The notes beneath the pieces were generated by a model, which ran no database searches, had not been told where the DNA came from, and worked only from the letters and a program-made list of their open reading frames with translations. From an uncultured Planctomycetia bacterium (GTDB taxonomy: Bacteria > Omnitrophota > Gorgyraeia > 1-14-0-20-64-10): 64,000 bases of DNA. Positions 8,451 through 63,690 of the stretch are shown piece by piece. The position numbers and the translations under genes are program-made. Location: positions 6,683-70,682 of the forward strand of contig CAZQXN010000004.1 of assembly GCA_964597545.1 (NCBI GenBank), in the 5' to 3' direction. Every line of letters begins with the position of its first letter. The stretch's first letter is position 1.

Positions 8451-9809
8451 CTATTGGGTTTGGCCGGTAAAGGTAAAGTCCTTCAACAGCACAGCCGGGG
8501 TGACCACCGAGGTAGCGCCTGAGATCGGATCGGCCACCAGACGAACCTCCTCGGAAAGGGCCTGGATTTTTGAGAAGGCCTGAAGAATCGACTGCGTAAA
8601 CCGTAAATTCTTCACAGCGCTCACCACCCTACCTCTCTCCACCAGAAAGGTTCCGTCTCGAGTCAACCCCGTCATCAAGGCCTGCTGTGTGTCGAGCAGC
8701 CCGTTGACGTAGTGGAAGCGAGTAATCCATAGCCCTCGATCCATACATTGAAGCATTTGGTGATGCGGTACCTTACCCGGGGCCACACAGAGATGGGCGG
8801 CCCCGGGCCCTTCGGCGGCTTCGTCAAAGGCAGGGGCATGCCCGGTGGAGTGGCGGTGGTACAGCTTGGCGTATTGGCTGTCAAAGACCACCCCGCGGGC
8901 CCGTCCCCCCTCAACCAGCGGTACGCGCCTCTTCGGGATCCCTTCAAAATCAAAGGGAGTTGCCAGCCCGCGGGTATCGGTACCGTCATCCCAGATCGAC
9001 AGCGTTGGATGCATGAGTTGCTCTCCCATGCGGCCTGCAAAACAGCTGGTTCGCTCATGCAGCTGTTTGGCCCCAAAGGCGATGGTGGAAAGCCACTCCA
9101 CCAATTCCGCCACCGCCTCGGGCTCAAGCAGGACATTGTACTTCCCCAACCGGATGGTTTTGGAGTTCCTGTTATGCCTGCAGTGGTCCAGGGCTTGCTG
9201 TAGAAGGGACTGTGGGTTGAGGGTCTTGGGGTCGCGAACAGCCCCTGCTGCAAAGCCAGAAGCCTTGCCTTGGGTGGGAATCAATCTTAAGCCCGTGGTT
9301 GAGAAGGGCTGATACTGCGCAAGCCCCCCAGAGCCTACCACGCAGAACTCCTCCTCTCCTGTTGCAAAGGAGCCGGCCAAGTCCATTCCAGCGCGGTGGG
9401 TTTGTTGGGAGAGCTCTCGGATCATTCGGATGTTCTTGGTCAGGTTCTGGCGGTGATCCACTGGGAAGTGCGTCTTGATGGGGGCGGGTTTTTCGCGGGG
9501 TGGATGCGCGCTGAAGGCCGGTGCAGTCTGCTTGCTGGGGAGCCGTGCAATTTGAAGCGCAGAGGCAATCGCGCAAGTGAGTGCACGGTCGCTCAGTGAA
9601 GATGTGGTGGCAACCCCGGCGCGCCCCTCTGCCGCTACCTTGACCCAGACGGTGACATCCTCCTCATGGAAATTTTGATGAATGGCACCCCCGGCAAAGC
9701 GCAGGGTAGTCTTGGCGCCCCGCTGTACGGTTAAAAGGGTCTCATCGGCCGGTGATCTCTTTGCCGCCTCCTTAAGTACAGTCACCATGCGGGATTTACC
9801 CAGGAGCAT
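8451..9809 (-). CDS. pmbA: TldE/PmbA-family metalloprotease-associated protein
   Basis: 452-aa protein with TldD/PmbA-family layout. Start overlaps the stop of the tldD-like gene upstream on the minus strand. Confidence 0.75.
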   Translation of the reverse strand: MLLGKSRMVTVLKEAAKRSPADETLLTVQRGAKTTLRFAGGAIHQNFHEEDVTVWVKVAAEGRAGVATTSSLSDRALTCAIASALQIARLPSKQTAPAFSAHPPREKPAPIKTHFPVDHRQNLTKNIRMIRELSQQTHRAGMDLAGSFATGEEEFCVVGSGGLAQYQPFSTTGLRLIPTQGKASGFAAGAVRDPKTLNPQSLLQQALDHCRHNRNSKTIRLGKYNVLLEPEAVAELVEWLSTIAFGAKQLHERTSCFAGRMGEQLMHPTLSIWDDGTDTRGLATPFDFEGIPKRRVPLVEGGRARGVVFDSQYAKLYHRHSTGHAPAFDEAAEGPGAAHLCVAPGKVPHHQMLQCMDRGLWITRFHYVNGLLDTQQALMTGLTRDGTFLVERGRVVSAVKNLRFTQSILQAFSKIQALSEEVRLVADPISGATSVVTPAVLLKDFTFTGQTQ

Positions 9810-13008: not shown

Positions 13009-16000
13009 TTATGCTCCTGTTGCCAGTTCCTCCAGCCCCACCATGAAGGCGGGCAATTCTGTGGCAAGGAGGTGTTGGTCAACCCCCATGCGTTCAAAAA
13101 TATACTGAATCATTGCCGCTGCGTTTGCTGCTGCCGCCCGGACGACTGTTCCTGTAATGCCGGCATACTCCGCCAAGCTGAACAACAGGTCCGTCTCCTC
13201 CAGGCCGCCCAGCGCCCGAAAAGAGCGGGCATCTAAGGCAACGAGCTGGGTAACGACTCCTGCCGGATCAGTTCCATCATGAATCAGAGCTCTATCCTCA
13301 AGCCCGGCAAAAGCTCTTACAACCGGATCTTCCGCCAGATCTCCTCCAATCACAAAGAAGGAGTTGGGGTGGGTAGCAGAGCGATGGAGTCGCTCCAGTC
13401 GCCCCTCAATAGAGACCGGCCAAGAAACTGCTTCCTCCAGGCCTGTAGCGGGTCCACCAATGAGGTATGGCTCAAGATTCATCTGCAAGCCTGCATCTTT
13501 CTTGGGAAGGTTTTCCCATACCTTAACAATCTGATCTGCGGGAATCTCTAAAACGCGTTCTAGAATCGATAAATGGACCTCTGGAGTATCTTCCCTGGCG
13601 CCAAAGAGCCTGAGGGTGTCCACCTTGTTGCGATTGGAAAGGTATCGGAAGGGGATGACGTTTTCATCTGGCCGAACATTCACAGCGGCAACCCGAGCAT
13701 AGGGAAAATCCACGTATTGGTGTACGGTTTCTGGGGGATGTCCTGTAAAATCAAATTCAGCCAGGACGGCGTCAGATCGGTTACCTCTTGTTGCATAGCT
13801 CATCGCATGCTCTGGGATCTGCGTGATATTAGCATCTGAGCCAAACGGGGTTTCGTAATAGGGCAGCCCTCCATGCTCCAGGAGCTTCCATTTAAAGCTC
13901 TCCCAATTAGCTCCGTGCAACCAAACGTGACCGATCCACTGCGATCTTTCATCTTCGGTTGTCTCTCTAAAATATGCTTGTCCGCTTTCATTGGTGTCCA
14001 TCGTGACTTCGAAGCGCACAATGGCTTCATTTGCGCCCTGATAATTTAGCTCGCCGCCACTTCCATCCGCGGATTGATACGAGAGGTTTTGCTTTCCCCC
14101 TCCCTGCGCTGCAAGACGAGTTGCGCTTTTGATGGATCGAAATAGCTCCAGTCGGGTTGCCATGATCTTTGACCGCTCTCGCCATTCAATGCCCTCATCA
14201 GTTGTTACAAATTTGATGTCGCCAGCATCAACCTTTGCCAAAATAGCCTTTGTGAGCATGATGGCTGCCCAGGGACTAACGATGTCATCTTCGTTAATTG
14301 AGATTTTCGCCTTATCTCTAAATACCAGACGATGCGATTGGTCAGACCATCGGATATCGGGAAATACCGGCACATAATGAGGCTCGTGCATTGAAATGAT
14401 CAGCGGAGACTGCGCCTGAATAGACCCGGCTAACCCCTCGACTTTCTGTATGGTTCGTAGGTCTAATTCCTCCAAGCCTGTAGCGGGCTTCAGATCCAGT
14501 AACTCCACTATCTGCCTGGCTGAGCGCAGATAAGCATCAAACGCACTTTTGGATGAATAAGTAGAAGGGGTCGTTCTCATCTCTGCAGCGGACAGCTCTC
14601 CGGTTACAAACTGAGCAAGCCTATGGGCATCTGCCAGATGCAACCGTCTTGCGCCGCTGTCTGTCCCGAGATGCAGATCGTAATACCTCACAGCATCGGA
14701 GAACCGTGTCGGGTTGGGCATCGCTCCAAACCAAACTGCCAGCAAAAGCTGAACAACATGTTTGGGCTCCTTGAAACTAAAGCTATCTGAGGCTGGAAGC
14801 TCTTTCTCTAATACTTGGCGGGCAGCGGAGAAGGAGAGCTTGCCAGCCAAGAACTCTGGCAAGATATGCTGCGCTTCCTGGCGAAGTTTTAACAAGGTGT
14901 GCCAGGGGACGACAGTTTGATCGATAACATCCGGTGTATGAATGGGGTGTGCTTTGCCCGGGACCCACCCTTTGTAATCCAGATCAACGTCGAAAAGCAG
15001 ATCGGTCACTCCCTGCGGAATCTGTTCGGTATGCGCACGGTTGGCCGCCTCTTCGAACATCGCAGGAGGGATCCCCTGGAGATCCAGAACAATCAAGGTA
15101 TCTGTTCCGACACCAAGCAAAATCTGCTCCCCTCGTTTCGACATCACCTCCAGAATTGCCAGGATGGGGTGGGCTTCTGGGATCTTTGAGTCGAAGAAGT
15201 CGGTTTCCAAATAGACAATGTCGGGCCATCCCCAGCGGTAATGGATGTGCTCCAACAACAACTGGGCAGGTGCGCCAGAAAGCATATACGGAATTGCTTG
15301 AATCCACTTTTCTAACCCTTCGGGGGTTTGAATCGGGTGAAACCGTTCAAGCTCATGGATAGTGATCCGTAGATTTGATTTCTTATCTTCAATGATTTTG
15401 GGGTCAGCCGAGGGGGCATTGGGATCAGGCAAGTCAAGATAAGGTTTTTGCTGCCTTCGGTAATGGCTCGACTTATCAAACAAAAGCTGGCGAACACCTT
15501 GAGGAACTCGGGAAAAATGGGCCCGTTTTTTCATCTCCTCGAAGACCACCCGATCATCCGGGCCGGCCTCGATTCCTTCGCTATCCACAACCACCAACTC
15601 ACCGGAGCCGACTGCTACCACAACCTCTTTGGGCCGCTGGGCTACCTGATCTAGCGCATGGGAGATGCTCAATGCTGAGGCAGCCCTGTCTCTCCAGAAG
15701 CTCTCTGCGACAAGATAGGCAACCACTTCGTTTGGCCACTGATCATCAATGTATTGCAAAAGTTGTTGGGCCGCCCGCTCAGAAAGAATTTCCCACTTGG
15801 CCGATAAAGCCGAAAAAGCTTCTGGTTCTCGCAGAAGATTCATTATTGGCACATTGTTCAAAAACGGCGGCTGCTCCTCTATCCCGGCAGCAGCTGTGGG
15901 ACTCAATGCTTCCTTGAGTTGGAGGGTGACAGGGGACCCCTCTTCCATCCCTGCATTTAAGGGTCGCAACGCCCAGGCAGCGGGGGTGGGCAAAGCTAGG

Positions 16001-16053
16001 CCAGCGCTTAGCAGAAACATTAGGATTCTGTAGATGACCGGCTGCCTTTTCAT
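13009..16053 (-). CDS. Large secreted protein of unknown function (1015 aa from proposed start), with an internal duplication and recurrent A-x-G-L-E-E motifs
   Basis: - Signal peptide MKRQPVIYRILMFLLSAGLALPTPAAWA.
- Two internal roughly 100-aa repeats (...WP..V.YL....F...........LVV.D..GI......RAH....PQGV..LLFD).
- No recognisable enzymatic motif.
- ORF opens at 16113. Confidence 0.6.
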   Translation of the reverse strand: MKRQPVIYRILMFLLSAGLALPTPAAWALRPLNAGMEEGSPVTLQLKEALSPTAAAGIEEQPPFLNNVPIMNLLREPEAFSALSAKWEILSERAAQQLLQYIDDQWPNEVVAYLVAESFWRDRAASALSISHALDQVAQRPKEVVVAVGSGELVVVDSEGIEAGPDDRVVFEEMKKRAHFSRVPQGVRQLLFDKSSHYRRQQKPYLDLPDPNAPSADPKIIEDKKSNLRITIHELERFHPIQTPEGLEKWIQAIPYMLSGAPAQLLLEHIHYRWGWPDIVYLETDFFDSKIPEAHPILAILEVMSKRGEQILLGVGTDTLIVLDLQGIPPAMFEEAANRAHTEQIPQGVTDLLFDVDLDYKGWVPGKAHPIHTPDVIDQTVVPWHTLLKLRQEAQHILPEFLAGKLSFSAARQVLEKELPASDSFSFKEPKHVVQLLLAVWFGAMPNPTRFSDAVRYYDLHLGTDSGARRLHLADAHRLAQFVTGELSAAEMRTTPSTYSSKSAFDAYLRSARQIVELLDLKPATGLEELDLRTIQKVEGLAGSIQAQSPLIISMHEPHYVPVFPDIRWSDQSHRLVFRDKAKISINEDDIVSPWAAIMLTKAILAKVDAGDIKFVTTDEGIEWRERSKIMATRLELFRSIKSATRLAAQGGGKQNLSYQSADGSGGELNYQGANEAIVRFEVTMDTNESGQAYFRETTEDERSQWIGHVWLHGANWESFKWKLLEHGGLPYYETPFGSDANITQIPEHAMSYATRGNRSDAVLAEFDFTGHPPETVHQYVDFPYARVAAVNVRPDENVIPFRYLSNRNKVDTLRLFGAREDTPEVHLSILERVLEIPADQIVKVWENLPKKDAGLQMNLEPYLIGGPATGLEEAVSWPVSIEGRLERLHRSATHPNSFFVIGGDLAEDPVVRAFAGLEDRALIHDGTDPAGVVTQLVALDARSFRALGGLEETDLLFSLAEYAGITGTVVRAAAANAAAMIQYIFERMGVDQHLLATELPAFMVGLEELATGA

Positions 16054-16270
16054 AAGGTCCGTATTCATACTACAAGTATGGCACATTGGAGAAAAAATAG
16101 ACAAGTTCAGCAATCTAAAATTGGTACGATTAACTCATTGGGGGAGGGTGGTGGATTCAAGCGACGGTCGGAAAGCAGCCAAGACAGGTTCAGGGACCAA
16201 AGAGCAGTTTGTTAACCTTGCATAGAAAACTGGTTGACATTTACTCCTCCCGTAAGGGATAACGGTACTC

Positions 16271-51346: not shown

Positions 51347-54300
51347 ATGCAAACACAGAAGTTAGCCTATCAACTCACAGCACTCATCCTATCGGCAGCT
51401 CTGACGCTGCCCCCTTCTGCGTACGCGCTGCGCCCGCAAGAGAAACAGGAAGCTTCCGGCCTAGAGGAGCTTACCAAGGCCCTGCGCTTAGGCAATCCAG
51501 ACGCTGCCCTCGACACCCTTGTTCAAAGTGTCGCTGAGCGCCTCACCCTACCTGTCCCAGCTACCGGCCAGGAGGAAGGACCGGCAGATAGGATAAGGAC
51601 CCTGCTGGAGAGATCCCCCAATACCGAAACCATCTTTCACATCATCGGTCGGGATCTTCTGAGCACCTACCCCGACCTGAGAGGGTTTCATGATCTCCAT
51701 TCCTCTTTTGCTGTCGAGGGAATATCTAATTCATCTTCGGACTTGATCAGGAGGCATGCTGGGCCAGGCCACCTAGAAGTTTGGTATCACTACCCACAGA
51801 AAGCTGTCTGGATCTCGTGGGAAGAGATGCAATATTCTGCAACGAATTCCAGACGCGGATTTCAGAGGAAAGTTTACCTCTCTACACCCGCCAGGGAGAG
51901 GTTAGGCGTAGAGGGATTCCTTCGGCACCTCCTTGGTCCAGGGCAACTCAATGTTCCCAGTGAACTTTGGGATGGCGATGAAGCAATGTTCCAGGTCCTT
52001 GAAGACCTGGCGACCCTCTCCTCCGCCGGCCAGGAGGAAGCGGAACAAATCCATCAATTCCCAAAAGACGTTATCTCTGAGGAAGAATTACACCTACTTC
52101 CAGCCCAGATATTTCTTTGGGGCATGTTTCGTTTCAATCAAGTGGTTGAGGACCGTTTTGTCGTAAGGCTGAAGAATCGAAGAAACAAAATAGAGATAAT
52201 CCCAGGAGATCCAGAAGATCTTCCAGAAGACGCAGCCATGATGCGCTTGGAGGTACAGGCTCAAGATACCGTGACCGTTACGGTAGAGGGAGCGGCATCT
52301 CCAGAGATTAGAGAGATGGCGGCGGATATCGTCTCGGATTGGCTGAGCAAAGTTTTCCAAGTCAACCAGGAGCTTAAAGCCAAGCAGGCCGAGCACGAGG
52401 GTTCTTTTAAAGATAAAGCCAACGCCATCAAGAGACGAGCTTGGGACGAGTTTTCTGAAAGCTTGACGCCGCTTAAAGCAGCCCTTTCCGCTGGCCAAGA
52501 GGAGGCGGCGCTGGATGAGATTGAGGCAGCCATCGAAACAAAAAGGAGCCTCGACTTCACGCCTACAACCATTCTAAAGCATGGCGATGTCCTGGGCCGT
52601 TTCCATGGAGCCAGGGGCGCTTCGGCCGATGTTTATGTGGAGGCAGATCACGTCCTAGGCAAAGTACTCAACTCCCCCTTCTTCCTGAGAATGGTCCTGG
52701 CACAGCATCTTGGCAAGACCATTGCCGGTGCCACTCCCCTTTCAGTGGATCGACATAGACCCCCCCCGGACAATGTCCGCTTTGCCCTGAATCTTCCCTA
52801 TAGGGATTATCTTGAGGCGATGGAGCCAAGCTTAGAAATGCTGGAGCGCTTAATTGACGATCCAGGGGAGATGGTAGAGGTAGTGGTAGTGGAACCGGCC
52901 CCTCATTCTGGAGGGGCTTGGGTCATTTATAAGGGAGGCCCAGGAGAGGCTTGGGTGCCCGGTTTCATCCCTACCCGCTTTGTGTTTGCCAAGAGTGTGC
53001 CGCATAGTGCAGCCCCTGGGAGATGGTGGCTGCACTCGAAGATCGGACAGACCATTCGCGTTAGGCCGGACAGTGTTAATCGGAGGGGCCATTTTCCGCA
53101 GGCAGTCTTTGCCGCGGACCAGTCCTTTAATGCGGTTCGACGAGAGATTCGCCTGGCCGAACGAGAACTTCAGCAGCGAGACAAAGAGCATATCCCAGTC
53201 CGAGTGATTCTCGTTCACGAAGCTCTGCAGGGAGTCGAGGTGATGTATCGGAGTCAAAACGGCGGGTGGATAAGCGGTTTTATCCCCCCCTCCCGCATCT
53301 CCTTTCATTCTAAAGGACGGCCTGTCGGAAGGTTGCCCCATCTGCTTGACCGCTTGGGTTGGTTCCTCTCCCGGGTTGGCCAGGATATTCCAGCGGATCT
53401 TATCGCGATTGACAGCAGCAGAGGGCTTCCCAGAGCCACCTTCTCTGTCCGCTTGTCTTTGGAGGAAGTGCTCCAGGAGATGCAGCCAGCCCTTGAGCGG
53501 TTAGGTCAGGCAGCGGCCAATCCGAACGATCGGGTTGATGTGGAGTTGGCCTTGTTGGGCAGTAGAGAGGATGCAAACAGTATGAGGTATAGCCATTGGA
53601 ACCAGACAAGCTGGGTTCCGGGCTTCATTCCTGCGAGCCTATTCCTGGATGATCCTCACCAGAAAGTGCATACCTCCATTATCCGCGCTTGGTTATGGCG
53701 GCACCGGCATGAAAAGATTCCGGTGGCCGTAAAAGATGTTACACACAATCGACACCTTCCCAGGGCAGCCTTCAGCCTTGGACTTACAATTGACCAACTT
53801 AAAGCGGAGATTGAGCCTGCAGCCGAGCAGTTGGAAGGCTTAGGCCCGGGAGAGCTTCAGGTTCCATGTGAGGTGATACCCGCTACTGTAGAGGCCGGAG
53901 CAGAGGTGTTGTATCGCGGGCCCAGAGGAACGTGGATCCCAGGTTTTATTCATAAGAGCTACATCCGCTTTTTAGATAGAACAGTAGCTCCTCATGCCCT
54001 TTGGAGTCAATGGCTGAAAAGGCAAGTTGGCCGCAAGATCAATGTTACGTTTAATCACATCAAGCGCAATGATCCCATCCCGTCCGCGCTTTTTTCGTTG
54101 ACTCTGCCTGAGGATGTCCGGCCCTCTTTCCGTCCGGGCAAGACAGCTTCCGCTGGCCAGGAGGAGTGGTCAGCGGATGTTTGGAATCGACTTCACGCCG
54201 TCGGGCTGCATGGGACAACTGGCCCCTTGCTCAAGGAAATCATCCAGTATTACTCCAGGCAGGGGGCCGACGCCGATTTCGAGGGTGTCCGGGAAAAATG

Positions 54301-57001
54301 GGAAGCAATTGCCCGGATCATCCCTGATGCTCCGAGTCTTTCCGGTGTGGCAGAGGGTGTTGTGAGCGGTTTTATAGAGCGGGAGCTTCCCCTTTGGAAA
54401 CTTTCCGGGGTCCTCCTTCGCCGAGGCAGGTATGGTGAGGGTCACGGTGTTCTGCTGATTGGAGACGCCCGGCATGCTACAGTGAAAGCGCCCCAGACCA
54501 TTCAAATCAACCGAGGTTTAACCGGCCTCGCTCTTTTCCTTGTGGGAGATCCGAATATGAGCTGGGTTAAGCCACCACCCAAAGCTCCGGATTGGCGGTT
54601 CCTTGCTCAAAACAATCTTGTTGGCTTCGTAAGCGATGGCCAGCTCATTGTTGGCTCCAATCCCACGACAGAGAACCCCTCTGGACTGCGCGCCAAGATA
54701 GGTTGGCGGGATGACGACGTACCCTTTGGGTCAACAAGAATCCAATCCAGAGGAGAGTTTATTCCTGTTGAGCGCATCATCAAACTGGAAATGAAGGATA
54801 CCAAACCCTCAAAGATTGAGGCGGTTTGGGTCGGCTCTTCGCACGTAGCAATTCCGGAAGCGTTGGTACAGATCCTTGAGAGAATCGACGCCATTCATTT
54901 GGAGATCCAAGAGGGGGATCGTTTGGGGCAGTACCGGGAGTATGCTGGGCGCCTGCATCGAGAGTATTTTGCCGGCCTGGAAGAGGTTCAAGACGAGGTG
55001 GTGCGGCAGGCATGGGACGAATTGCGTCGGATTGTTACCCTAGAAGAATTTCAGGTTGACGATGAGGAGGCTCTTGTTCGGTTTGGGAAATCCACAGGGG
55101 CTAAAGTGGTTAAGAAAACAATTACAGGACGCCCCATCGTTACTATTGGACCGGAAATGTTCCGGAAATTGACCGCTTTTCGCCAGACAGGCCAACTTCC
55201 GCCTGGTACCCCCGCCAAGCATTATGAAGAACTACGAAACAATGATGAAGTGAATGAACCTGGCGTTTATGTGAGTCCTACCGGACTGAAAATGGCGCAT
55301 CAGGAGTTGGCTGCCGCAGGCATTGATTTTCGTTATACGAAAGGAATCTTCTTTCATGAGGCGCTGGAGGAAGGGTTTGATGGTTCCGGAATCACTGACC
55401 CCATCTTGGCTCTATGTGAACAGCATACGGACCCAAGGGTGATCGAAGAGGAGCTTCTGGTCAATGCGTTAATCGGGGAAGAAAGCGTAGAGGCCTCACG
55501 GGCAGGTTATCAATTCGCCAAACAGAGAGTTGATCAAAACCTCAGCAATAGCCAGCGCTTCTTCGCGTTTGTTAAAGACCGTTACGAGAGCGGAGGCCGT
55601 TCTACCACATTTGATGAGATTGAAGCCTCGCTTGGCCCAACAAGCCGGTATTATCGAACACTCCAATGGGTTGTTGATACCCCGTACGACCAACTCCTCG
55701 CATTGGCCCAAAGACGCTGGGAAGGATCCGATTACTCCTCTGCCGTTCCTCTCGCAGCCGGCCTGGAGGAGGAGACAACCAGAGTCCTGGCTCCTACGCT
55801 GGAAGTTCCAATTGCTGCCCTGGAAGAGGGTAATCTAGAGCAAGCACTGCAAGGATCTGCCTATCTCCTGGAGCCTAAGCCGACAACAGATCAACTCGAA
55901 ACATCTTTTGTGCAATTCCCCGGTGAACTCTGGGCTGTTGGATTCAGGGATCGAGACAATATTCCGCATCTCGCTGTTGGAGCAGGAAACAGGGATCACG
56001 CTATTGGCATAACTGATTTCTTAACCAAGGCATACAGCGCGGCGCCCGTCAGCGTTGACGTCGTTCACAAGCATCCGGAGCCCCCCTTTCCTTCGAAGGG
56101 AGATTTTGATCTATTGAGAACCTGGAAGCTACGCCAGGGAGGGCGCGTAGGCCGACAGCGCAATTGGGTTGAGATTCGCCGAGATGGAGTGTGGCGACTC
56201 CTTGGGTACGGGAGAGATTATAAAGAGACGGCAGATTTCCAAAGAGAGATTCAGGTTCAGATTTGGAAAAGAGGCGAGAGGGCGCAGAACGAGTTCTATC
56301 TTCCAGGTACTGGAGGTTTACGCGTTGCGCTTGTCGCGGACCAAGAGGTTTTTGGCATCCCGGGCCTTGATTATTTCTATCAGTTGATCGACCAGCCTGA
56401 GACAACAGGGGTCAGGTTCGAAGATGCCGTTGGCCACTGGGTTCTCTGGAGGGCAGACAACACCTGGGAATCTATCTTCGAATCACAAGGCTATACTCGT
56501 TCTGCCACTAGCTTTTCGACAGCGAGCAGGGCAGGGCCGGTGGAAGCGGCAGGCGCGCTGCTTACGCGGTTGGCCCAAGCCGCAGAAGGCCAACCCGGCG
56601 TTTTGGTGCTCACCCCTGAGGCCATCCAGGATCCAGCCGGCCTAGAGGAGCTTATCAAGCGCCTCCCCCCAGAGCTCTTACGACGGACCATCTGGTTCAA
56701 CACAGGAGTTGCCCTGGCCGAATACCTGCACTCCCTTGAACCCACCCTCCAGATCATAAAGGACTACAACACCCAAGCCCTGGTCCTAAAACTCCTCAGC
56801 AGGGAAGAGGCAGAGAAGATCACCACCACCTCTAAAGATCTTGCCCTCTACCTCCAAGAAGTCCTCCCCATGACCGTCACCTACCTTAAGGTCCTCACCG
56901 TCAAGCTGATCCTGGCGGCCCTAGGGGTTCCCATCGAACAGCTCAACCAGATCGACCCCACCAAGCTCGAAGCCCTCTTCGCACCGCTGGTAGCCGCCTA
57001 A
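51347..57001 (+). CDS. Giant secreted protein (1884 aa), unknown function, with four W[VI]PGFIP-type internal repeats and recurrent A-x-G-(L/Q)-E-E motifs
   Basis: - Signal peptide MQTQKLAYQLTALILSAALTLPPSAYA.
- Repeats (GEAWVPGFIPTRF..., GGWISGFIPPSRI..., TSWVPGFIPASLF..., GTWIPGFIHKSYI...), each followed by a basic segment and L..A.FS..L.
- C-terminal 135-aa module is duplicated at 63200-63624. Confidence 0.7.
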   Translation: MQTQKLAYQLTALILSAALTLPPSAYALRPQEKQEASGLEELTKALRLGNPDAALDTLVQSVAERLTLPVPATGQEEGPADRIRTLLERSPNTETIFHIIGRDLLSTYPDLRGFHDLHSSFAVEGISNSSSDLIRRHAGPGHLEVWYHYPQKAVWISWEEMQYSATNSRRGFQRKVYLSTPARERLGVEGFLRHLLGPGQLNVPSELWDGDEAMFQVLEDLATLSSAGQEEAEQIHQFPKDVISEEELHLLPAQIFLWGMFRFNQVVEDRFVVRLKNRRNKIEIIPGDPEDLPEDAAMMRLEVQAQDTVTVTVEGAASPEIREMAADIVSDWLSKVFQVNQELKAKQAEHEGSFKDKANAIKRRAWDEFSESLTPLKAALSAGQEEAALDEIEAAIETKRSLDFTPTTILKHGDVLGRFHGARGASADVYVEADHVLGKVLNSPFFLRMVLAQHLGKTIAGATPLSVDRHRPPPDNVRFALNLPYRDYLEAMEPSLEMLERLIDDPGEMVEVVVVEPAPHSGGAWVIYKGGPGEAWVPGFIPTRFVFAKSVPHSAAPGRWWLHSKIGQTIRVRPDSVNRRGHFPQAVFAADQSFNAVRREIRLAERELQQRDKEHIPVRVILVHEALQGVEVMYRSQNGGWISGFIPPSRISFHSKGRPVGRLPHLLDRLGWFLSRVGQDIPADLIAIDSSRGLPRATFSVRLSLEEVLQEMQPALERLGQAAANPNDRVDVELALLGSREDANSMRYSHWNQTSWVPGFIPASLFLDDPHQKVHTSIIRAWLWRHRHEKIPVAVKDVTHNRHLPRAAFSLGLTIDQLKAEIEPAAEQLEGLGPGELQVPCEVIPATVEAGAEVLYRGPRGTWIPGFIHKSYIRFLDRTVAPHALWSQWLKRQVGRKINVTFNHIKRNDPIPSALFSLTLPEDVRPSFRPGKTASAGQEEWSADVWNRLHAVGLHGTTGPLLKEIIQYYSRQGADADFEGVREKWEAIARIIPDAPSLSGVAEGVVSGFIERELPLWKLSGVLLRRGRYGEGHGVLLIGDARHATVKAPQTIQINRGLTGLALFLVGDPNMSWVKPPPKAPDWRFLAQNNLVGFVSDGQLIVGSNPTTENPSGLRAKIGWRDDDVPFGSTRIQSRGEFIPVERIIKLEMKDTKPSKIEAVWVGSSHVAIPEALVQILERIDAIHLEIQEGDRLGQYREYAGRLHREYFAGLEEVQDEVVRQAWDELRRIVTLEEFQVDDEEALVRFGKSTGAKVVKKTITGRPIVTIGPEMFRKLTAFRQTGQLPPGTPAKHYEELRNNDEVNEPGVYVSPTGLKMAHQELAAAGIDFRYTKGIFFHEALEEGFDGSGITDPILALCEQHTDPRVIEEELLVNALIGEESVEASRAGYQFAKQRVDQNLSNSQRFFAFVKDRYESGGRSTTFDEIEASLGPTSRYYRTLQWVVDTPYDQLLALAQRRWEGSDYSSAVPLAAGLEEETTRVLAPTLEVPIAALEEGNLEQALQGSAYLLEPKPTTDQLETSFVQFPGELWAVGFRDRDNIPHLAVGAGNRDHAIGITDFLTKAYSAAPVSVDVVHKHPEPPFPSKGDFDLLRTWKLRQGGRVGRQRNWVEIRRDGVWRLLGYGRDYKETADFQREIQVQIWKRGERAQNEFYLPGTGGLRVALVADQEVFGIPGLDYFYQLIDQPETTGVRFEDAVGHWVLWRADNTWESIFESQGYTRSATSFSTASRAGPVEAAGALLTRLAQAAEGQPGVLVLTPEAIQDPAGLEELIKRLPPELLRRTIWFNTGVALAEYLHSLEPTLQIIKDYNTQALVLKLLSREEAEKITTTSKDLALYLQEVLPMTVTYLKVLTVKLILAALGVPIEQLNQIDPTKLEALFAPLVAA

Positions 57002-57024
57002 ACCCAAACCTAAAACCTGTACCC

Positions 57025-57053
57025 GGTACCAAGGGGTCAGACCCTTTCGTACC
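57025..57053. repeat. GGTACC / GGGTCAGACCC-family hairpin after the giant gene (contains the 19-mer GGGTCAGACCCTTTCGTAC also found at 21434)
   Basis: GGTACCAAGGGGTCaGACCCTTTCGTACC is an imperfect hairpin. Confidence 0.5.
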
Positions 57054-57688: not shown

Positions 57689-59230
57689 GTGCTGGCCAAG
57701 GTTCATTCTGCAGCGCTCGTTGGCTTGACCGCCGTTCCGGTTGCGGTAGAGGCGGATGTCTCCAACGGTTTGCCCGGGGTGACTGTTGTGGGCCTGCCGG
57801 ATACCGCGGTTCGGGAGTCCAAGGTTCGCATCCGCTCAGCCATCAAAAACAGCCAGTACGACTGGCCCATGAGCCGGATGACGGTCAATCTCGCTCCTGC
57901 TGATGCTCGGAAAGAAGGTTCAGCCTTTGATTTTCCGATGGCGCTGGGGCTCTTGGCTGCCTCCGGCCAGATGGATCCGACTGCCTTGGCCGACACCGTC
58001 ATCTTGGGGGAGCTGGCGCTGGATGGCTCCTTAAGGCCGGTTCCAGGGATTCTGGCGGTTGCCTTAAGCCTTCAGGGCAAGGGCAAGCGCCTTCTTCTTC
58101 CGGCAGCCAATGCGGCTGAGGCAGCCATGGTTGAAGGGGTTGAAGCCTACCCCTTAAGCTGCCTTCCTCAAGCGATTCAGTTTCTGGAAGGGCGAGAGGA
58201 GGTCAGCCCGGCGCAGGTCGATTTGACAAAGCTTCTCCAGAATGATCCTGCGTCAGATGGCCTGGATTTTTCAGAGGTGAAGGGGCAGGTGACCGCCAAG
58301 CGAGCCATTGAGATTGCCGTTGTTGGAAGCCACAATCTGCTTTTGCTCGGTCCACCCGGTGCCGGCAAGACCATGCTGGCTGAGCGGATTCCAACAATCC
58401 TGCCGGAGATCTCAGCACCCGAGGCGTTGGAGACTACCTTAATCTACAGCGTAACCGGGCACCTGCAATTGAGTCGGCCCCTTCTGAATAAGCGGCCCTT
58501 TCGTTTTCCGCATCACACGGTATCCGACGTGGGGCTTGTCGGAGGCGGTTCCCCTCCCAAGCCAGGGGAGATCTCCCTGGCGCATCACGGGGTACTCTTC
58601 TTAGATGAACTGCCGGAGTTCCCCCGCTCAGTCTTAGAAAGCTTGCGCCAACCTTTGGAGGAGGGGAGGATCACGGTCTGTCGAGCCAGAGGAACCACCA
58701 CCTTCCCGGCTAAGTTCATGTTGGTTGCCGCCATGAATCCATGCCCGTGCGGTTTTGCCGGGGATGTCACCAAGAATTGTCTTTGCACCCCCAGCCAGTT
58801 CCTCAAGTACCGCTCCAGAGTCTCCGGCCCCTTGATGGACCGGATTGACCTCCACGTTGAGGTCCCGGCCCTTTCCTACAGCGAGCTGACTGAGGAAACT
58901 CCAGCAGAGTCCTCCACGGCTATCCGGATGCGAGTAACCCAGGCTCGTGCTCGTCAACAAAGGCGCTTTCAGGCTACCCCCAGCTGTTTTGCCAACGCCC
59001 AAATGCGCCACCGGCACCTCAAGCGCTTCTGTTCCCTCTCTGAGGAGAGCCGCCAGCTCCTCAAGGATGCCATCTCGGGCTTGGGTCTCTCTGCCCGCGC
59101 CTACCACAAGATCCTTAAAGTTGCCCGAACCATTGCTGACCTGGAAGCTGCCCCTGATATCGTTCCTCACCACCTGGCAGAGGCGATCCAATACCGCCTT
59201 CTGGACCGCTCCTATGCCGACTCCCTCTAA
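57689..59230 (+). CDS. comM: Mg-chelatase-like AAA+ ATPase YifB/ComM
   Basis: Lon-protease-like N-domain, Walker [21 protein letters not shown] Walker B, C-terminal ChlI-type domain. GTG start. Confidence 0.85.
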   Translation: MLAKVHSAALVGLTAVPVAVEADVSNGLPGVTVVGLPDTAVRESKVRIRSAIKNSQYDWPMSRMTVNLAPADARKEGSAFDFPMALGLLAASGQMDPTALADTVILGELALDGSLRPVPGILAVALSLQGKGKRLLLPAANAAEAAMVEGVEAYPLSCLPQAIQFLEGREEVSPAQVDLTKLLQNDPASDGLDFSEVKGQVTAKRAIEIAVVGSHNLLLLGPPGAGKTMLAERIPTILPEISAPEALETTLIYSVTGHLQLSRPLLNKRPFRFPHHTVSDVGLVGGGSPPKPGEISLAHHGVLFLDELPEFPRSVLESLRQPLEEGRITVCRARGTTTFPAKFMLVAAMNPCPCGFAGDVTKNCLCTPSQFLKYRSRVSGPLMDRIDLHVEVPALSYSELTEETPAESSTAIRMRVTQARARQQRRFQATPSCFANAQMRHRHLKRFCSLSEESRQLLKDAISGLGLSARAYHKILKVARTIADLEAAPDIVPHHLAEAIQYRLLDRSYADSL

Positions 59231-60049: not shown

Positions 60050-60385
60050 CCCACTGCAGCTCAATACGCAGGCGGCAGTCACTCGCACAACTCGCACTCG
60101 TGGGACGCTCACCAGGAGCGGCGGAATCGGGGCGGATTTGACGTAACTATTGATCAGGTATTAGGTTAACGAGATTTGTGCTTGCGGGCCCGGAACGCTG
60201 GGGGGCCGAAAAATTTGATGAAATTACCCCCTTGCAGCTTAGGAGATAGTGTATACTTTCTTACTGTAAGGAACAATATAGGTCTGAAAAAGGCAAACTA
60301 TCCGAAAGGGTAGGGCGTAACGCCATAGAGCCGTCAGGGTTATGTAATGTAACCCCCGGCAGTCGGTTGCCAGATCAAACGGTAA

Positions 60386-60424
60386 AAGCCCTAAGCTTTT
60401 GGATAAGTTTGGGGCTTTTTTTAT
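60386..60424 (+). terminator. Imperfect hairpin followed by T7 (intrinsic terminator)
   Basis: AAGCCCTAAGCTTttggatAAGTTTGGGGCTTTTTTT. Confidence 0.5.
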
Positions 60425-60502
60425 TTGTACACTAGCTTGATTCTTGGCGGAAGAAGATATGGTGGAATCTCAAAGGGATTGAAGGAAAAGGGGGTTGCGG
60501 GA

Positions 60503-61645
60503 ATGAAGAGCAAGATGAAATTGATTATAGGTATGATAATGGGATTTTCATTCTCGGTAGTGATGCTATGTATGGGGGGTAGTTCCATATATGCTGCCGA
60601 GCTTGAGGTGGATAAGGAGGAATTTAACGAAAAATGGCAGGAAACCTACAAGGAACTTCAGGAGATTGATCCTACAGCAGCCGAAGAATTTCGCGCTTTA
60701 ACTGTGGAGGAATTTGAAGTAGGAAATGTCGGATATGTTCCTGAAGAGAGAGGGGGGACTGAGGAAATAGGTCCTGGCCCTGCTCCCGGTCCTAGGCCTG
60801 GTCCGCATGTCGGTCCCCGTCCTGATCCCGTGGAAGCTTTGAAAGCAAAAGGAATAAGTGATGAGGATATTGGCAAGATTCGCAAGGCTGAGGAAGCATT
60901 AAGCGTGGAAAGCGAGAAGGTCGAATGGGATAAGCTGACTCCCGAGGAAGCAAGGAAGGTGGAGCAGTCCTTCGGAGAACGTTTCAAGGAAATGAGCGGG
61001 TATGATCCAAAAGATATTTTTGCCCCGCCTCCGGGAGACCACCACCCAGAAGGCCCATATCACGGGCCAGGACATGAGGGGCCTTACGCTGGTCCTCATC
61101 ATGAAGGGCCTTATGTCGGTCCTCGTCCGGAACCTGGCTTCATAGAGGGTCCATATCCTGGGCCAGGACATGAAGGACCTTACGCCGGTCCTCATCCAGA
61201 ACGTGGTTTTGAAGGTCCCGTGATGGGGGGGCCGATGCCTGAAGGTCCCGTGATGGGGGGGCCGATGCCTGAAGGTCCCATGATGGAGGGCCCGGCATTT
61301 GAGGGTCCTATGATGGGGGGGCCGATGCCTGAAGGTCCCATGATGGATAGGCCGATGTTTGAAGGTCCTATGATGGAGGGCCCGGCGTTTGAGGGTCCCA
61401 TGATGGAAGGGCCGGCATTTGAGGGTCCCATGATGGAGGGCCCGGCGTTTGAGGGCCCGGCATTTGAGGGCCCAGCGTTTGAGGGTCCGGCGTTTGAGGG
61501 CCCGGCATTTGAGGGTCCGGCGTTTGAGGGCCCGGCATTTGAGGGCCCAGCGTTTGAGGGTCCGGCATTTGAGGGCCCAGGAGAGGATATAGAGCATATC
61601 CATGATGAGAATATGCCACCACCTCCAGAAGAGAATAATCCGTAA
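60503..61645 (+). CDS. Secreted His/Pro/Gly-rich tandem-repeat protein (EGPYxGPxH, EGPMMEGP and EGPAFEGP repeats)
   Basis: Signal peptide MKSKMKLIIGMIMGFSFSVVMLCMGGSSIYA at the ATG at 60503. 15-nt and 30-nt periodic coding repeats at about 61020-61600. AT-rich context. Confidence 0.7.
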   Translation: MKSKMKLIIGMIMGFSFSVVMLCMGGSSIYAAELEVDKEEFNEKWQETYKELQEIDPTAAEEFRALTVEEFEVGNVGYVPEERGGTEEIGPGPAPGPRPGPHVGPRPDPVEALKAKGISDEDIGKIRKAEEALSVESEKVEWDKLTPEEARKVEQSFGERFKEMSGYDPKDIFAPPPGDHHPEGPYHGPGHEGPYAGPHHEGPYVGPRPEPGFIEGPYPGPGHEGPYAGPHPERGFEGPVMGGPMPEGPVMGGPMPEGPMMEGPAFEGPMMGGPMPEGPMMDRPMFEGPMMEGPAFEGPMMEGPAFEGPMMEGPAFEGPAFEGPAFEGPAFEGPAFEGPAFEGPAFEGPAFEGPAFEGPGEDIEHIHDENMPPPPEENNP

Positions 61646-61708
61646 GAAGGCTAGTGGCCTATACTGGAGAGTTGTGGGGTTTGAGGTAAGGTAGGTAACT
61701 GCAGAAAA

Positions 61709-61746
61709 GTAAAAGGCCTACTTCTTCAAAGAAGTAGGCCTTTTAC
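61709..61746. terminator. Bidirectional rho-independent terminator (16-bp perfect palindrome) between convergent genes
   Basis: GTAAAAGGCCTACTTCTTcaaaGAAGTAGGCCTTTTAC. Confidence 0.7.
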
Positions 61747-61758
61747 TATAGAGAAATA

Positions 61759-62862
61759 CTAGAAACTTACGTAGAGTCCTGCCAGGTGCGAAACCTGGTC
61801 GTAGTCGTAAACAGCATAGTTTGAGTCTGACTTCTTGTGCGTGAAGGTGTATGACAAGGTCCAGTCTTTCTTCAGCGTATAGTAGAAGTATAACTTCTGG
61901 GTATATACATCGTCGTATTCCATTTCAGCATATGATGCAGGTGAGCCCACCCTGCGCTTGCAGTAGTTCTTTCGTTCATAGGCCGAACTGGCTTTGGCAT
62001 ACAGTTTCTTTGTGAGGCTACGGCCAAGCTCTCCTGTCACCTTATAGGAATACAGGTCGTAGTACTCCCTGTAGTTGTCGTTGGAAGTTTCTGTGTAGAA
62101 CTTTTGCTTGATCTTAGCGTTGTTTTTGCCCAGGAGAGGAAAACCCAGGTTGTATTCAAAAGCATGTCTGTTTTTTTCCACCACCATTCCGGAAATAAAG
62201 TCAGTGCTGGTGTTTGTGCGTGGTCGCTTTTTATCGTACTCCTTAAAGGAGTACTCGTATTTACCATCGTGAGACCAGCGTTTCCAGAATCGGTGCTTGA
62301 ACTTCAGGAAGAGCTTATCCTCCGTATAAGAGGAGGTTCCGGCGTCAGGGTAATGGACGTACTGGCGTTCCCACCCTGGCTGTAACTCAAAGTAAGGTTT
62401 TCCGGTAGGGAAATATTTAAGGATGACTTTAAAGGCAGCGTCCAAGATGGTCGTATCCTGGTTGTCGAAGTAGATATCGGCATAATGCCACGGACCGATC
62501 TCTGCCCCAAAGTAATCGTTGAAGGTAGGAACCCAAGCAAAGGAAAAATACTGTTCGAAATATAGGTCTCCCCGTCGGTCAGAATTGGTATTGGCATTTT
62601 TGTCGTATCCAATGTGAAGACCGACTGTTCCTTTGGTGGCGCGCAGTTGTTCGCGTTGTTTCTCTTCCATCTTGCGCAAGGCGCGCTGCTTGAGCATCTC
62701 GATCAATTCCTCGGCAGAGCTTATAGCCGCGCCTCTGTCTTCCGCAAGCCCTTCCGCCAGGCGGTCCTCTCGGGCCTCTTCCGATTGGGCCCATCCCGGC
62801 GGCGGATTGATGAGTAGGGCTCCGACAATCAAGCTGAGCAGAAAGAGATCCTTTCTTGCCAT
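61759..62862 (-). CDS. Outer-membrane beta-barrel protein (porin-like), unknown specificity
   Basis: Signal peptide MARKDLFLLSLIVGALLINPPPGWA. Tyr/Lys/Asp-rich with alternating hydrophobic pattern. C-terminal ...LAGLYVSF aromatic terminus. AT-rich codon usage. Confidence 0.6.
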   Translation of the reverse strand: MARKDLFLLSLIVGALLINPPPGWAQSEEAREDRLAEGLAEDRGAAISSAEELIEMLKQRALRKMEEKQREQLRATKGTVGLHIGYDKNANTNSDRRGDLYFEQYFSFAWVPTFNDYFGAEIGPWHYADIYFDNQDTTILDAAFKVILKYFPTGKPYFELQPGWERQYVHYPDAGTSSYTEDKLFLKFKHRFWKRWSHDGKYEYSFKEYDKKRPRTNTSTDFISGMVVEKNRHAFEYNLGFPLLGKNNAKIKQKFYTETSNDNYREYYDLYSYKVTGELGRSLTKKLYAKASSAYERKNYCKRRVGSPASYAEMEYDDVYTQKLYFYYTLKKDWTLSYTFTHKKSDSNYAVYDYDQVSHLAGLYVSF

Positions 62863-62973
62863 TTTTTCTTCCCTCCCCCCTTAGTTAGAATTAAAAACAA
62901 CATACGCTTTTTGCAAACAGTTGTCTACATTTTTGTCAAGTTATTTTGGTGCAAATAACTGTCCCCCTAACAA

Positions 62974-63624
62974 GTGGCCGCTATCGAGATTGCGGTGGCC
63001 GGCTGCCACAACCTCCTCTTGATTGGCCCGCCCGGTGCCGGCAAGACCATGTTGGCTGAGCGGATTCCAACAATCCTGCCAGAGATCTCAGCACCCGAGG
63101 CATTGGACACCACCTTGATCTACAGCGTGACTGGGCATCTTCAGCTGAGTCGACTCCTGTTGAATAGACGGCCCTTTCGCTTCCCGCACCACCTTGCTCA
63201 AGAGGCAAAGGGCCGCTCCGGCATGCTGGTACTAACCCCGAAAGCCATCCAGGACCCAGCCGGCCTGGAGGAACTCGTTAAGCGCCTGCCTCCAGAGCTC
63301 TTGCAGCGGATCATCTGGTTCAACACAGGTGTTGCCCTGGCCAAACGCCTGCATGCCCTGGAACCCACCCTCCAGATCATAGAGGACTACAACACCCAAG
63401 CCCTGGTCCTAAAACTCCTAAGCCAGGAAGCAGCAGAAAAGATCTCCACCACCTCTGAATCCCTCACCCTCTACCTCCAAGAAGTCCTCCCCATGACCGT
63501 CACCTATCTGAAAGCCCTCACCGTCAAGCTGATCCTTGTCGCCTTAGGGGTCCCCATGGAGCAGCTCAACCAGATCGATCCCACCCAGCTAGAAACCCTC
63601 TTCGCACCGATTACCGCTGCTTAA
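62974..63624 (+). pseudogene. Chimeric duplicated fragment: internal comM segment (Walker A region) fused in-frame to a copy of the giant protein C-terminal module
   Basis: - Residues [42 protein letters not shown]...RPFRFPHH are about 85% identical to comM residues about 205-290.
- The following residues, ...[26 protein letters not shown]...LFAPITAA, are about 80% identical to giant-protein residues about 1750-1884.
- The fragment is followed by the same GGTACC repeat. Confidence 0.55.
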
Positions 63625-63690
63625 CCCTAAAATCGGTACCAGGTACCAAACCCACAAATCGGTACCTGGTACCAAGAGCTGGTACCAAAA
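63625..63690. repeat. GGTACC-family repeat (AATCGGTACCAGGTACCAAACCCAC ... AATCGGTACCTGGTACCAAG ... GGTACC)
   Basis: The same terminal unit as the bioD-bioA element; arms in opposite a/t-centre orientation. Confidence 0.55.

Follow-up and report, generated by a model that had tools for sequence, protein, structure and literature searches.

A stretch of 64,000 nucleotides (nt) from the genome of an uncultured bacterium of the Omnitrophota lineage (the window, in whose positions coordinates are given below unless a relative's locus is named) carries near its right end a pair of convergent genes, one for an exported, acidic and largely disordered repeat protein and the other for an outer-membrane (OM) beta-barrel, and the leader of the first contains a class I cyclic di-GMP (c-di-GMP-I, or GEMM-I) riboswitch. 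Our best reading, which we hold to be probable by a modest measure, is that of an exported, disordered protein of the envelope or surface whose expression c-di-GMP represses and which works with a barrel of the CymA/OmpG kind. With the same restrained confidence we take the two genes to form a conserved envelope module of Omnitrophota-type bacteria of the Planctomycetes-Verrucomicrobia-Chlamydiae (PVC) group, with a c-di-GMP switch on one gene of the two. Omnitrophota are uncultivated and often ultra-small, and their lifestyle is inferred only from genomes. The literature on riboswitches and c-di-GMP in this lineage offered passing mentions only, and we found no description in it of a regulated two-gene module. 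Neither this class of riboswitch nor its OFF mechanism is new; what the pair provides is a link between a known second-messenger sensor and a small, conserved, otherwise unannotated two-gene envelope module, and thereby a concrete handle on c-di-GMP control in Omnitrophota that we regard as a solid, testable lead.

A c-di-GMP-I riboswitch in the leader of the repeat gene

The riboswitch is the strongest functional clue to the pair, and it was missed in an earlier annotation made without database searches (the sequence-only reading). The leader contains the following elements.

60250-60257, + strand: possible -10 element (TG..TATACT), read from the sequence about 25 nt 5' of the aptamer; not established as a promoter
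60282-60374, + strand: c-di-GMP-I (GEMM-I) riboswitch aptamer (Rfam RF01051, 51.4 bits)
60299-60317, + strand: P2 loop, P2 3' strand and GGGCG of the aptamer, the proposed 5' half of an anti-terminator (RNAduplex, truncated fold)
60384-60426, + strand: intrinsic terminator, the riboswitch expression platform (terminator scan; 15-bp stem at 60384-60419, followed by UUUUUUUAUUU)

The aptamer matches the Rfam covariance model over its full length (model positions 1-87) and above the gathering threshold of 35 bits. It is on this model that the structure call rests, as RNAalifold applied to a MAFFT alignment of 6 aptamers recovered fragments of the structure only. In the Vc2 aptamer, ligand is contacted by G20, A47 and C92 (PMC4744006). 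The cmscan alignments place the equivalents of these nucleotides at 60292, 60319 and 60370/60371, and their presence identifies the aptamer as one of the canonical c-di-GMP type. An A at position 20 confers cyclic GMP-AMP (cGAMP) specificity, as in the GEMM-Ib aptamers of Geobacter, and a G at position 47 typifies the GGC variant (RF03167 consensus). We rejected both assignments, the former because position 20 is a G and the latter, even though the c-di-GMP-I-GGC model outscored the canonical one in some scans, because position 47 is an A in all copies.

The terminator begins 10 nt past the aptamer and ends 77 nt before the ATG of the repeat gene. In the minimum free energy (MFE) structure of the full-length leader, aptamer and terminator are folded together. 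When the transcript is ended before the 3' arm of the terminator, the MFE structure shifts to a pairing between P2 and the terminator 5' arm (15 cross pairs, a free-energy difference of -5.3 kcal/mol), and the duplex of 60299-60317 with 60387-60404 is predicted by RNAduplex at -22.6 kcal/mol, against a mean of -11.3 (sd 2.7) for shuffled arms. The same truncation was applied to 9 leaders, 8 of which form the alternative pairing with 13-16 cross pairs and free-energy differences of -4.9 to -14.1 kcal/mol. Its duplex energies exceed those of shuffled arms, and matching changes occur on both of its sides (GGGCA/UGCCC in L004 and GGGCG/CGCCC in L005, where L001-L024 denote loci fetched from relatives). 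The order of aptamer, hairpin with U-run, ribosome-binding site and ATG is constant in 11 leaders. Since the alternative pairing destroys both the aptamer and the terminator, an aptamer stabilised by its ligand is predicted to give termination, and on this folding model the riboswitch most likely shuts the repeat gene off when c-di-GMP is high. Class I c-di-GMP riboswitches of Clostridioides difficile are documented as transcriptional OFF switches (PMC11477304).

Upstream of the aptamer, the sequence TATACTTT lies at a similar distance from it in L003 as in the window. We do not claim TTGCAG (60232-60237) and TATACT as a promoter pair, the spacer between them being only 14 nt.

Conservation of the switch, the repeat gene and the barrel

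Barrel homologues number 28, at 31-69% identity, and all of them are metagenomic or lie in metagenome-assembled genomes (MAGs) labelled Candidatus Omnitrophota or Planctomycetales. We fetched the surrounding DNA wherever the extent of the contig permitted, counting the pair only in loci that retain DNA 3' of the barrel gene and the aptamer only where upstream DNA is present. On this basis the convergent pair occurs in 16/16 loci, the window included, with barrel identity down to about 30%. Walking from the barrel recovered a convergent partner in L001, L003, L004, L005, L006, L007 (= L011), L008, L009, L012, L014, L015, L017 and L020, in each case a strongly acidic, low-complexity protein with a signal peptide and a Pro-rich tail. 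From the other side, an exhaustive phmmer search with the N-terminal domain of the window partner returned 6 proteins among 1.84 billion representatives, and the two loci recovered in this way (L023 and L024) have an aptamer upstream and a convergent, 66%-identical barrel gene downstream. Word-indexed homology searches with the same N-terminal domain, and with a 4-sequence alignment of the helical domain, returned nothing; partner relatives were reached only by exhaustive phmmer and by walking from the barrel.

Of the 12 loci with upstream DNA, 11 have an above-threshold aptamer ahead of the partner gene, namely the window and ten relatives (RF01051 bits: L003 59.1, L004 38.1, L005 35.3, L007 38.0, L008 41.3, L012 64.4, L014 64.8, L015 70.3, L023 62.2, and L024 44.4, where the aptamer is cut by the contig end). 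In the related aptamers position 20 is a G, apart from L024, which is cut 5' of this position and so lacks it; all have an A at 47 and CC at 92. No third gene is consistently linked to the pair across the loci examined.

Several other elements were seen in these loci. A group II intron D1-D4 element (L008 7505-7587, - strand, 53.6 bits) lies between the barrel and partner genes, a gene with GGDEF and HD-GYP domains (L020 268-1680) lies 2.4 kb upstream of a barrel homologue, and a BatA-D operon of the aerotolerance type (VWA/TPR) stands directly upstream of the barrel gene in L001 (1-5716) and L019 (47-4345). A near-threshold PyrR binding site (L023 39-144, - strand, 51.4 bits vs 54) is found upstream of the riboswitch on the opposite strand.

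The exported repeat protein and its family

The gene under the riboswitch is laid out as follows.

60481-60494, + strand: purine-rich ribosome-binding region GAAGGAAAAGGGGG, read from the sequence 5' of the ATG at 60503
60503-61645, + strand: gene of the repeat protein, which is exported, acidic and for the most part predicted to be disordered (open reading frame (ORF) and translation, 380 amino acids (aa))
60503-60595, + strand: signal peptide, aa 1-31, Sec type, cleaved between SIYA and AE
about 60815-61018, + strand: helical domain, aa 105-172
about 61040-61207, + strand: His/Tyr-type units
61208-61579, + strand: EGPMM/EGPAF units
61580-61642, + strand: acidic/His and Pro-rich tail GEDIEHIHDENMPPPPEENNP

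The sequence-only reading had correctly placed this ORF and that of the barrel, and had described the former as a secreted protein with an acidic helical domain, which the signal peptide, the acidic N-terminal part and a single-sequence AlphaFold2 (AF2) model bear out. The model has helices at residues 109-172 with a predicted local distance difference test score (pLDDT) of about 90, and residues 178-380 as coil with pLDDT below 50. Some 190 repeat residues are predicted to be disordered. These are rich in Gly, Pro, Glu, Met and Phe, and their units run from HEGPY/AGPH types through PVMGG/PMPEG/PMMEG to nine consecutive AFEGP. The earlier figure of about 40 repeats is fair, given 39 GP dipeptides, 28 regular pentapeptide units and approximately 36-39 Gly-Pro pentapeptide units in all; a separate repeat search listed 11 in-register copies. 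The 15/30-nt periodicity reported for the DNA is likewise confirmed by Tandem Repeats Finder, which adds periods of 60 and 90 nt across 61208-61579 and one of 27 nt at 61073-61124. Met makes up 6.8% of the protein, and its 11 His are grouped in the HEGPY units and an EHIHDE tail. As the units are multiples of 3 nt, slippage would alter the length of the protein and not its on/off state.

Sequence searches of Pfam, NCBIfam and the PDB assigned the repeat protein to no family, and neither its translation nor Pfam revealed a lipobox, a peptidoglycan-binding domain or an inner-membrane anchor. Several candidate identities were discarded. An Extensin_1 match (28 bits vs a cut-off of 105) is compositional; a pentapeptide-repeat solenoid is at odds with the lack of any Pfam pentapeptide-repeat match and with the coil given by AF2; a collagen-like reading, with Gly at every third residue, was rejected; and a PEP-CTERM/exosortase substrate would have a C-terminal transmembrane anchor, which this protein lacks. 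An antisense ORF (60899-61603, - strand) was rejected as a real gene because it is the + frame that has the signal peptide, ribosome-binding site, homologues and matching riboswitch orientation.

Members of the family have in common a signal peptide, an acidic helical domain, spaced aromatics, a tail rich in Pro and net charges of -24 to -97; a GDEH-like motif close to the C-terminus is frequent. The repeat motif itself changes from locus to locus: EGPAF/EGPMM in the window, PPEGFKPPEDF in L003, MMDMPDMP in L001, FEREALERGG in L004-L007 and GPMGPGGP/FQPPPGFEPPP in L008-L015. So complete a difference makes a sequence-specific function of the repeats unlikely. Over 17 partner sequences, Met is enriched family-wide (3.6-7.3%, and 36% in one C-terminal fragment from L001 built of MMDMPDMP units), and His, at 0.5-3.6%, is not a family trait.

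The sequence-only reading also held the repeat tract to be prone to length variation. This is shown in close relatives, in which whole units have been gained or lost, and not in the window gene itself. At 95% identity, the partner proteins P0031 and P0035 are set apart by exactly one DGPMPEFEAPMF unit of 12 aa. In L012, L014 and L015, all from one metagenome, the barrels are 94-96% identical and align free of gaps, while alignments of their partners contain 59-212 gap columns, a 13-aa repeat unit among them. The contigs of L001, L017 and L020 reach only a few hundred bases into the repeat gene before they stop, which suggests that assemblies break at the repeats and that database lengths for these genes may be unreliable.

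The outer-membrane barrel and the intergenic hairpin

61759-62862, - strand: gene for a 14-strand OM beta-barrel, 367 aa (signal peptide aa 1-25, basic helix aa 49-73, barrel aa 76-366, C-terminal Phe)
62899-62927, - strand: sigma-70-like promoter candidate for the barrel gene (TAGACA-17-TATGTT; consensus scan, 9/12 matches)
61708-61747, both strands: perfect 18-bp hairpin, a bidirectional terminator candidate (RNAfold)

The second protein had been called a Tyr-rich barrel with a C-terminal Phe, and this description is well founded. Tyr accounts for 9.5% of its residues, the signal peptide is cleaved between GWA and QS, and the C-terminus reads ...GLYVSF, with the terminal Phe invariant across 24 homologues. 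The structure prediction that had been proposed as a check gives a barrel of 14 strands (AF2 with the 24-sequence alignment, pLDDT 82.7, predicted template modelling score 0.71), whose best structural matches are substrate channels or porins and which resembles CymA and OmpG. The helix at aa 49-73 precedes the strands and lies on the periplasmic side in the model, and its residues L57, R60, A61 and K64 are nearly invariant. Rfam scans detected no RNA element ahead of the barrel gene.

Between the two stop codons lies the hairpin that had been described as a perfect bidirectional terminator. The 18-bp stem is indeed perfect and strong on both strands (-28.6/-28.1 kcal/mol by RNAfold), but it is followed by short U-tails (UUUUAC...) and is absent from the output of the consensus terminator scan, so that it is better termed a candidate. 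Partial Rfam Thr_leader matches here correspond to the terminator hairpin of that model only.

Base composition and genomic neighbourhood

The pair had further been described as an AT-rich islet with distinct codon usage, acquired as a unit. Measured against a window mean of 0.567, GC content does dip at 60200-60800 and 61600-62600, where it is 0.44-0.47, but the repeat DNA between is GC-rich (0.60-0.62). Codon usage is distinct for one gene of the two: GC content at third codon positions (GC3) in the repeat gene is 0.478 (z -3.3), the sole composition anomaly on the island test, whereas the barrel gene, at a GC of 0.486 (z -2.9), has a native-like GC3 of 0.601 (z -1.0). With GC3 this near normal, the low GC of the barrel gene comes mainly from amino-acid composition, and the gene is slightly lower in GC than its flanks in most relatives too.

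The surroundings are those of a housekeeping chromosome, with genes for succinyl-CoA ligase and for biotin and quinone biosynthesis, purH, folC, ychF and trpE-like genes, and no integrase, tRNA or flanking direct repeats bound the pair in the window. Some neighbours recur. In L017, whose barrel is 66% identical, the pair adjoins SpoVG and ComM as in the window, in a different order (ComM-YraN-SpoVG-72aa-barrel-partner, as against ComM-ORF6N-SpoVG-partner-barrel-ComM fragment), and the window also has in common with L005/L021 (34% identical) a nearby M48 peptidase and YchF. On the right flank, a chimeric ORF (62974-63624, + strand) consists of a ComM/Mg-chelatase fragment that continues in the same frame into a duplicate of the C-terminal end of a giant ORF, with DNA identities of 83% to 58304-58516 for the ComM part and 84% to 56573-56872 for the giant-ORF part, and is probably the relic of a rearrangement. 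The neighbourhood is thus rearranged, yet there is no sign of the pair entering from outside the lineage. With neighbours partly conserved, the pair present in all 16 loci, housekeeping surroundings and a native-like barrel GC3, acquisition as a unit is not supported.

The giant ORF itself (51347-57001, + strand, 1884 aa) has no Pfam or NCBIfam match, a GC3 below that of its neighbours (z -1.9) and, internally, four modules some 110 aa long that all contain a W[VI]PGFIP-like motif; a GGTACC-containing sequence follows its stop codon at about 57018-57035. Genes with ORF6N domains (phage anti-repressor-like; 57102-57680 and 59223-59741, + strand) flank the intact ComM gene at 57689-59230, the second of them having a low GC of 0.486. 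A 26-nt sequence, AACCCAAAAATCGGTACCAGGTACCA, is repeated in tandem (two copies, 63623-63675) immediately past the chimeric ORF. Elsewhere in the window are three tandem paralogues of about 650 aa (1705-7690, + strand; 70-83% nt identity in blocks, no Pfam match), a 1034-aa ORF (13009-16113, - strand; no Pfam match, low GC3 at z -2.3) and an IS200-like (Y1_Tnp) transposase gene (7792-8388, + strand), which has the lowest GC3 outside the pair (z -2.6); no other mobility gene was seen in the window.

A working model and its alternatives

We propose that transcription would start near 60258, so that the aptamer is made first. With c-di-GMP bound, the aptamer would stay folded, and the hairpin at 60384-60419 with its U-tract would terminate transcription before the gene. 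At low c-di-GMP, the terminator 5' arm and loop (60387-60404) would instead invade P2 (60299-60317), the anti-terminator would form and polymerase would enter the gene. The product would be exported by the Sec route as a small acidic helical domain followed by some 190 disordered residues of Gly, Pro, Glu and Met/Phe/Tyr/His and a Pro-rich tail. Its partner, transcribed convergently from a promoter of its own, would be a monomeric, 14-strand, CymA/OmpG-like barrel with a conserved basic helix on the periplasmic side, and could act as the export pore or the docking site of the disordered protein. That the barrel may export or anchor its partner is suggested by their strict adjacency, by a pore class that passes bulky solutes and by analogy with curli and Fap. 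The outcome might be an acidic, polymer-like coat that is displayed or released in the low-c-di-GMP state, with a repeat tract that would grow and shrink by whole units and so tune its length. The analysis shows the aptamer match, the terminator, the competing pairing, the conservation of the trio, the barrel fold, the predicted disorder and the unit indels in relatives; from these we infer how the switch responds to ligand and with which polarity, that the two proteins interact physically, where the repeat protein ends up and what it does for the cell.

A number of observations weigh against this proposal. As regards the switch, the full-length leader holds aptamer and terminator together in its MFE structure without ligand, which makes the OFF call a kinetic argument; the L003 leader does not form the P2/5'-arm pairing and would need another anti-terminator; a sigma-70 consensus scan found no + strand promoter before the repeat gene; and upstream of the L006 partner there are only two adjacent weak c-di-GMP-I-like matches (8495-8707, - strand, about 25 bits each), which may be a degenerate aptamer or tandem aptamers. 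As regards the proteins, the barrel gene is not under the riboswitch; adjacency is the sole evidence for coupling; the disorder prediction comes from a single sequence; and with repeat motifs wholly different between loci (EGPAF, PPEGFKPPEDF, MMDMPDMP, FEREALER, GPMGPGGP), the actual function could rest on the small helical domain instead of the repeats. Expression at low c-di-GMP, moreover, argues against a classical role in biofilm matrix.

Other functions can be set against a coat or surface protein served by the barrel. The sequence-only reading took richness in His and Met as a sign of Cu, Ni or Zn binding, which can be developed into a disordered, Met/His/Asp/Glu-rich periplasmic sponge or chaperone for Cu(I)/Cu(II) (or Ni/Zn) that feeds efflux through the barrel, in effect a split PcoB/CopB, in which a disordered, Met/His-rich N-terminus is needed for copper resistance. 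The Met content of the window protein and of the family speaks for this idea, as do the clustered His of the HEGPY units and EHIHDE tail, the His-rich tails with a Cys pair in L008, L009 and L012-L015, and the finding that PcoB requires its disordered, His/Met-rich region for function (PMC12509749). His is not enriched family-wide, however; the partners in L004-L007 are Glu/Arg-rich helical repeats with few candidate ligands beyond carboxylates; no cop, pco or cus genes, multicopper oxidase or metal sensor adjoins the pair in any locus; control is by c-di-GMP and not by a metal-responsive regulator; and the barrel resembles CymA/OmpG more than PcoB. The case for metal binding through His and Met is consequently weak, and metal handling appears to us unlikely. 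We would give a similarly low standing to a periplasmic spacer or tether, in which an extended partner, docked on the conserved basic helix at the barrel N-terminus, fixes or gauges the spacing of the envelope much as Lpp, TonB or TolA linkers do. The diverse repeat chemistries, all extended or rod-like (polyproline II-like Gly-Pro here, Glu/Arg resembling a single helix elsewhere, and always a Pro-rich tail), would suit such a device, as would length variation by whole units, the strongly acidic partners and the charged helix that the barrels conserve at their periplasmic face (L57, R60, A61, K64); but the repeat protein lacks a lipobox, a peptidoglycan-binding domain and an inner-membrane anchor, nothing observed ties it to the periplasm, and shut-off by a second messenger would be unexpected of a structural spacer. 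A little less probable than either, and plainly speculative, is the idea of a disordered, acidic polymer studded with Met, Phe and Tyr, akin to FG-nucleoporins or elastomers, which is threaded through or grafted onto a dedicated, wide 14-strand barrel as a c-di-GMP-gated surface brush or selective gel, controlling contact, permeability or host-cell attachment in ultra-small Omnitrophota, with repeat length as a rapidly evolving tuning knob.

Two further accounts would dispense with the module as such, and both seem to us very unlikely, the second marginally the more so. According to the first, which is the model of the sequence-only reading, the pair is a horizontally acquired AT-rich islet that carries a contingency-type variable surface antigen and its porin. 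The local GC dips, the GC3 of the repeat gene, the rearranged flank with its chimeric ORF and nearby ORF6N genes, the unit indels in relatives and the genomic GC of those relatives (0.38-0.47, near the 0.486 of the barrel gene) all lend it some colour. Against it stand the presence of the pair in all related loci examined, the neighbours shared with L017 and with L005/L021, a barrel GC3 within the native range and a low barrel GC that recurs in most relatives and points to amino-acid composition, and borders that lack integrase, tRNA and direct repeats; a contingency antigen, for its part, is ill served by units whose slippage changes length without switching the gene. The second account has the genes as uncoupled neighbours, the barrel a general diffusion porin and the repeat protein an independent product of the periplasm or the cell exterior, such as a methionine-rich oxidant sink. 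The genes are after all convergent, separately promoted and not co-transcribed, the riboswitch serves the repeat gene only, the best structural matches of the barrel are substrate channels and porins, and a Bat aerotolerance-type operon adjoins the barrel gene in L001 and L019. Yet adjacency and orientation are kept in every one of the 16 loci even as barrel identity drops to about 30% and every other neighbour differs, and a convergent pair conserved this strictly is hard to explain without selection. The reading that we favour is still the c-di-GMP-repressed exported protein with its barrel. This combination of a hypervariable, disordered protein and a barrel is a candidate component of the surface or envelope and could be tested in heterologous hosts.

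Comparison with known systems

The riboswitch resembles other RF01051 switches, such as Vc2 and Vc1 of Vibrio cholerae and those upstream of flgB and PPEP-1/zmpI in C. difficile, in its full-length model match, canonical ligand contacts, intrinsic-terminator platform and secreted or surface cargo, and it shares with the C. difficile class I switches a predicted ligand-induced termination (PMC11477304). It differs from them in belonging to a lineage of Omnitrophota/PVC MAGs, in regulating an uncharacterised gene family, in an anti-terminator that would use the P2 3' strand and not P1, and in the large aptamer insertions of L004, L007 and L008; ligand binding is here a prediction.

For the barrel, the monomeric channels CymA of Klebsiella oxytoca (4d5b) and OmpG of Escherichia coli (2f1c) have the same 14-strand fold. 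Homology is another matter, for sequence identity to the window barrel is 8-11% and the PDB gave no sequence-level match. The window barrel also has an additional conserved charged N-terminal helix, and its genomic partner is a disordered protein in place of sugar-utilisation genes. A weak likeness to the PEP-CTERM-associated OM proteins BBP2_2 (PF10082) and EpsL (TIGR03014) covers the last few beta-strands. Sub-threshold BBP2_2 matches occur in 19/24 members of the barrel family (best E-value 9e-6), and the window barrel falls below the cut-offs of both families (11.4 bits vs 23.7 for BBP2_2, 23.1 bits vs 275 for TIGR03014). In contrast to those proteins, the window pair has no exopolysaccharide or exosortase context, and its partner has no PEP-CTERM anchor.

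In PcoB/CopB, with which periplasmic metal sponges of the PcoE/SilE type may be grouped, a poorly conserved, disordered, Met(/His)-rich segment is likewise functionally tied to an OM barrel (PMC12509749). The window pair differs in that a gene of its own encodes the disordered part, in its lack of conserved His and of nearby copper genes, and in its regulation by c-di-GMP; among the 17 partners and in all loci, the combination of conserved His and Met richness with a copper-gene context that would define this class was not found. Elastomeric or entropic-spring sequences of low complexity (titin PEVK, resilin, abductin) and cohesive disordered domains of the FG-nucleoporin type are similar in composition, with Pro, Glu and Gly, regularly spaced Met, Phe and Tyr, short tandem units and predicted disorder. 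This likeness is purely compositional, with no homology, and the window protein is bacterial and exported. A parallel may also be drawn with curli (CsgA/CsgG) and Fap (FapC/FapF), in which an unfolded repeat protein is exported via a dedicated OM channel. The window pair departs from these in having no amyloid-type repeats or accessory genes and in the 14-strand, CymA-like architecture of its barrel, for which export is our inference. Set beside them, the pair would be a further case of a disordered exported protein with a dedicated OM partner, in this instance one whose repeat tract varies by whole units among near-identical strains.

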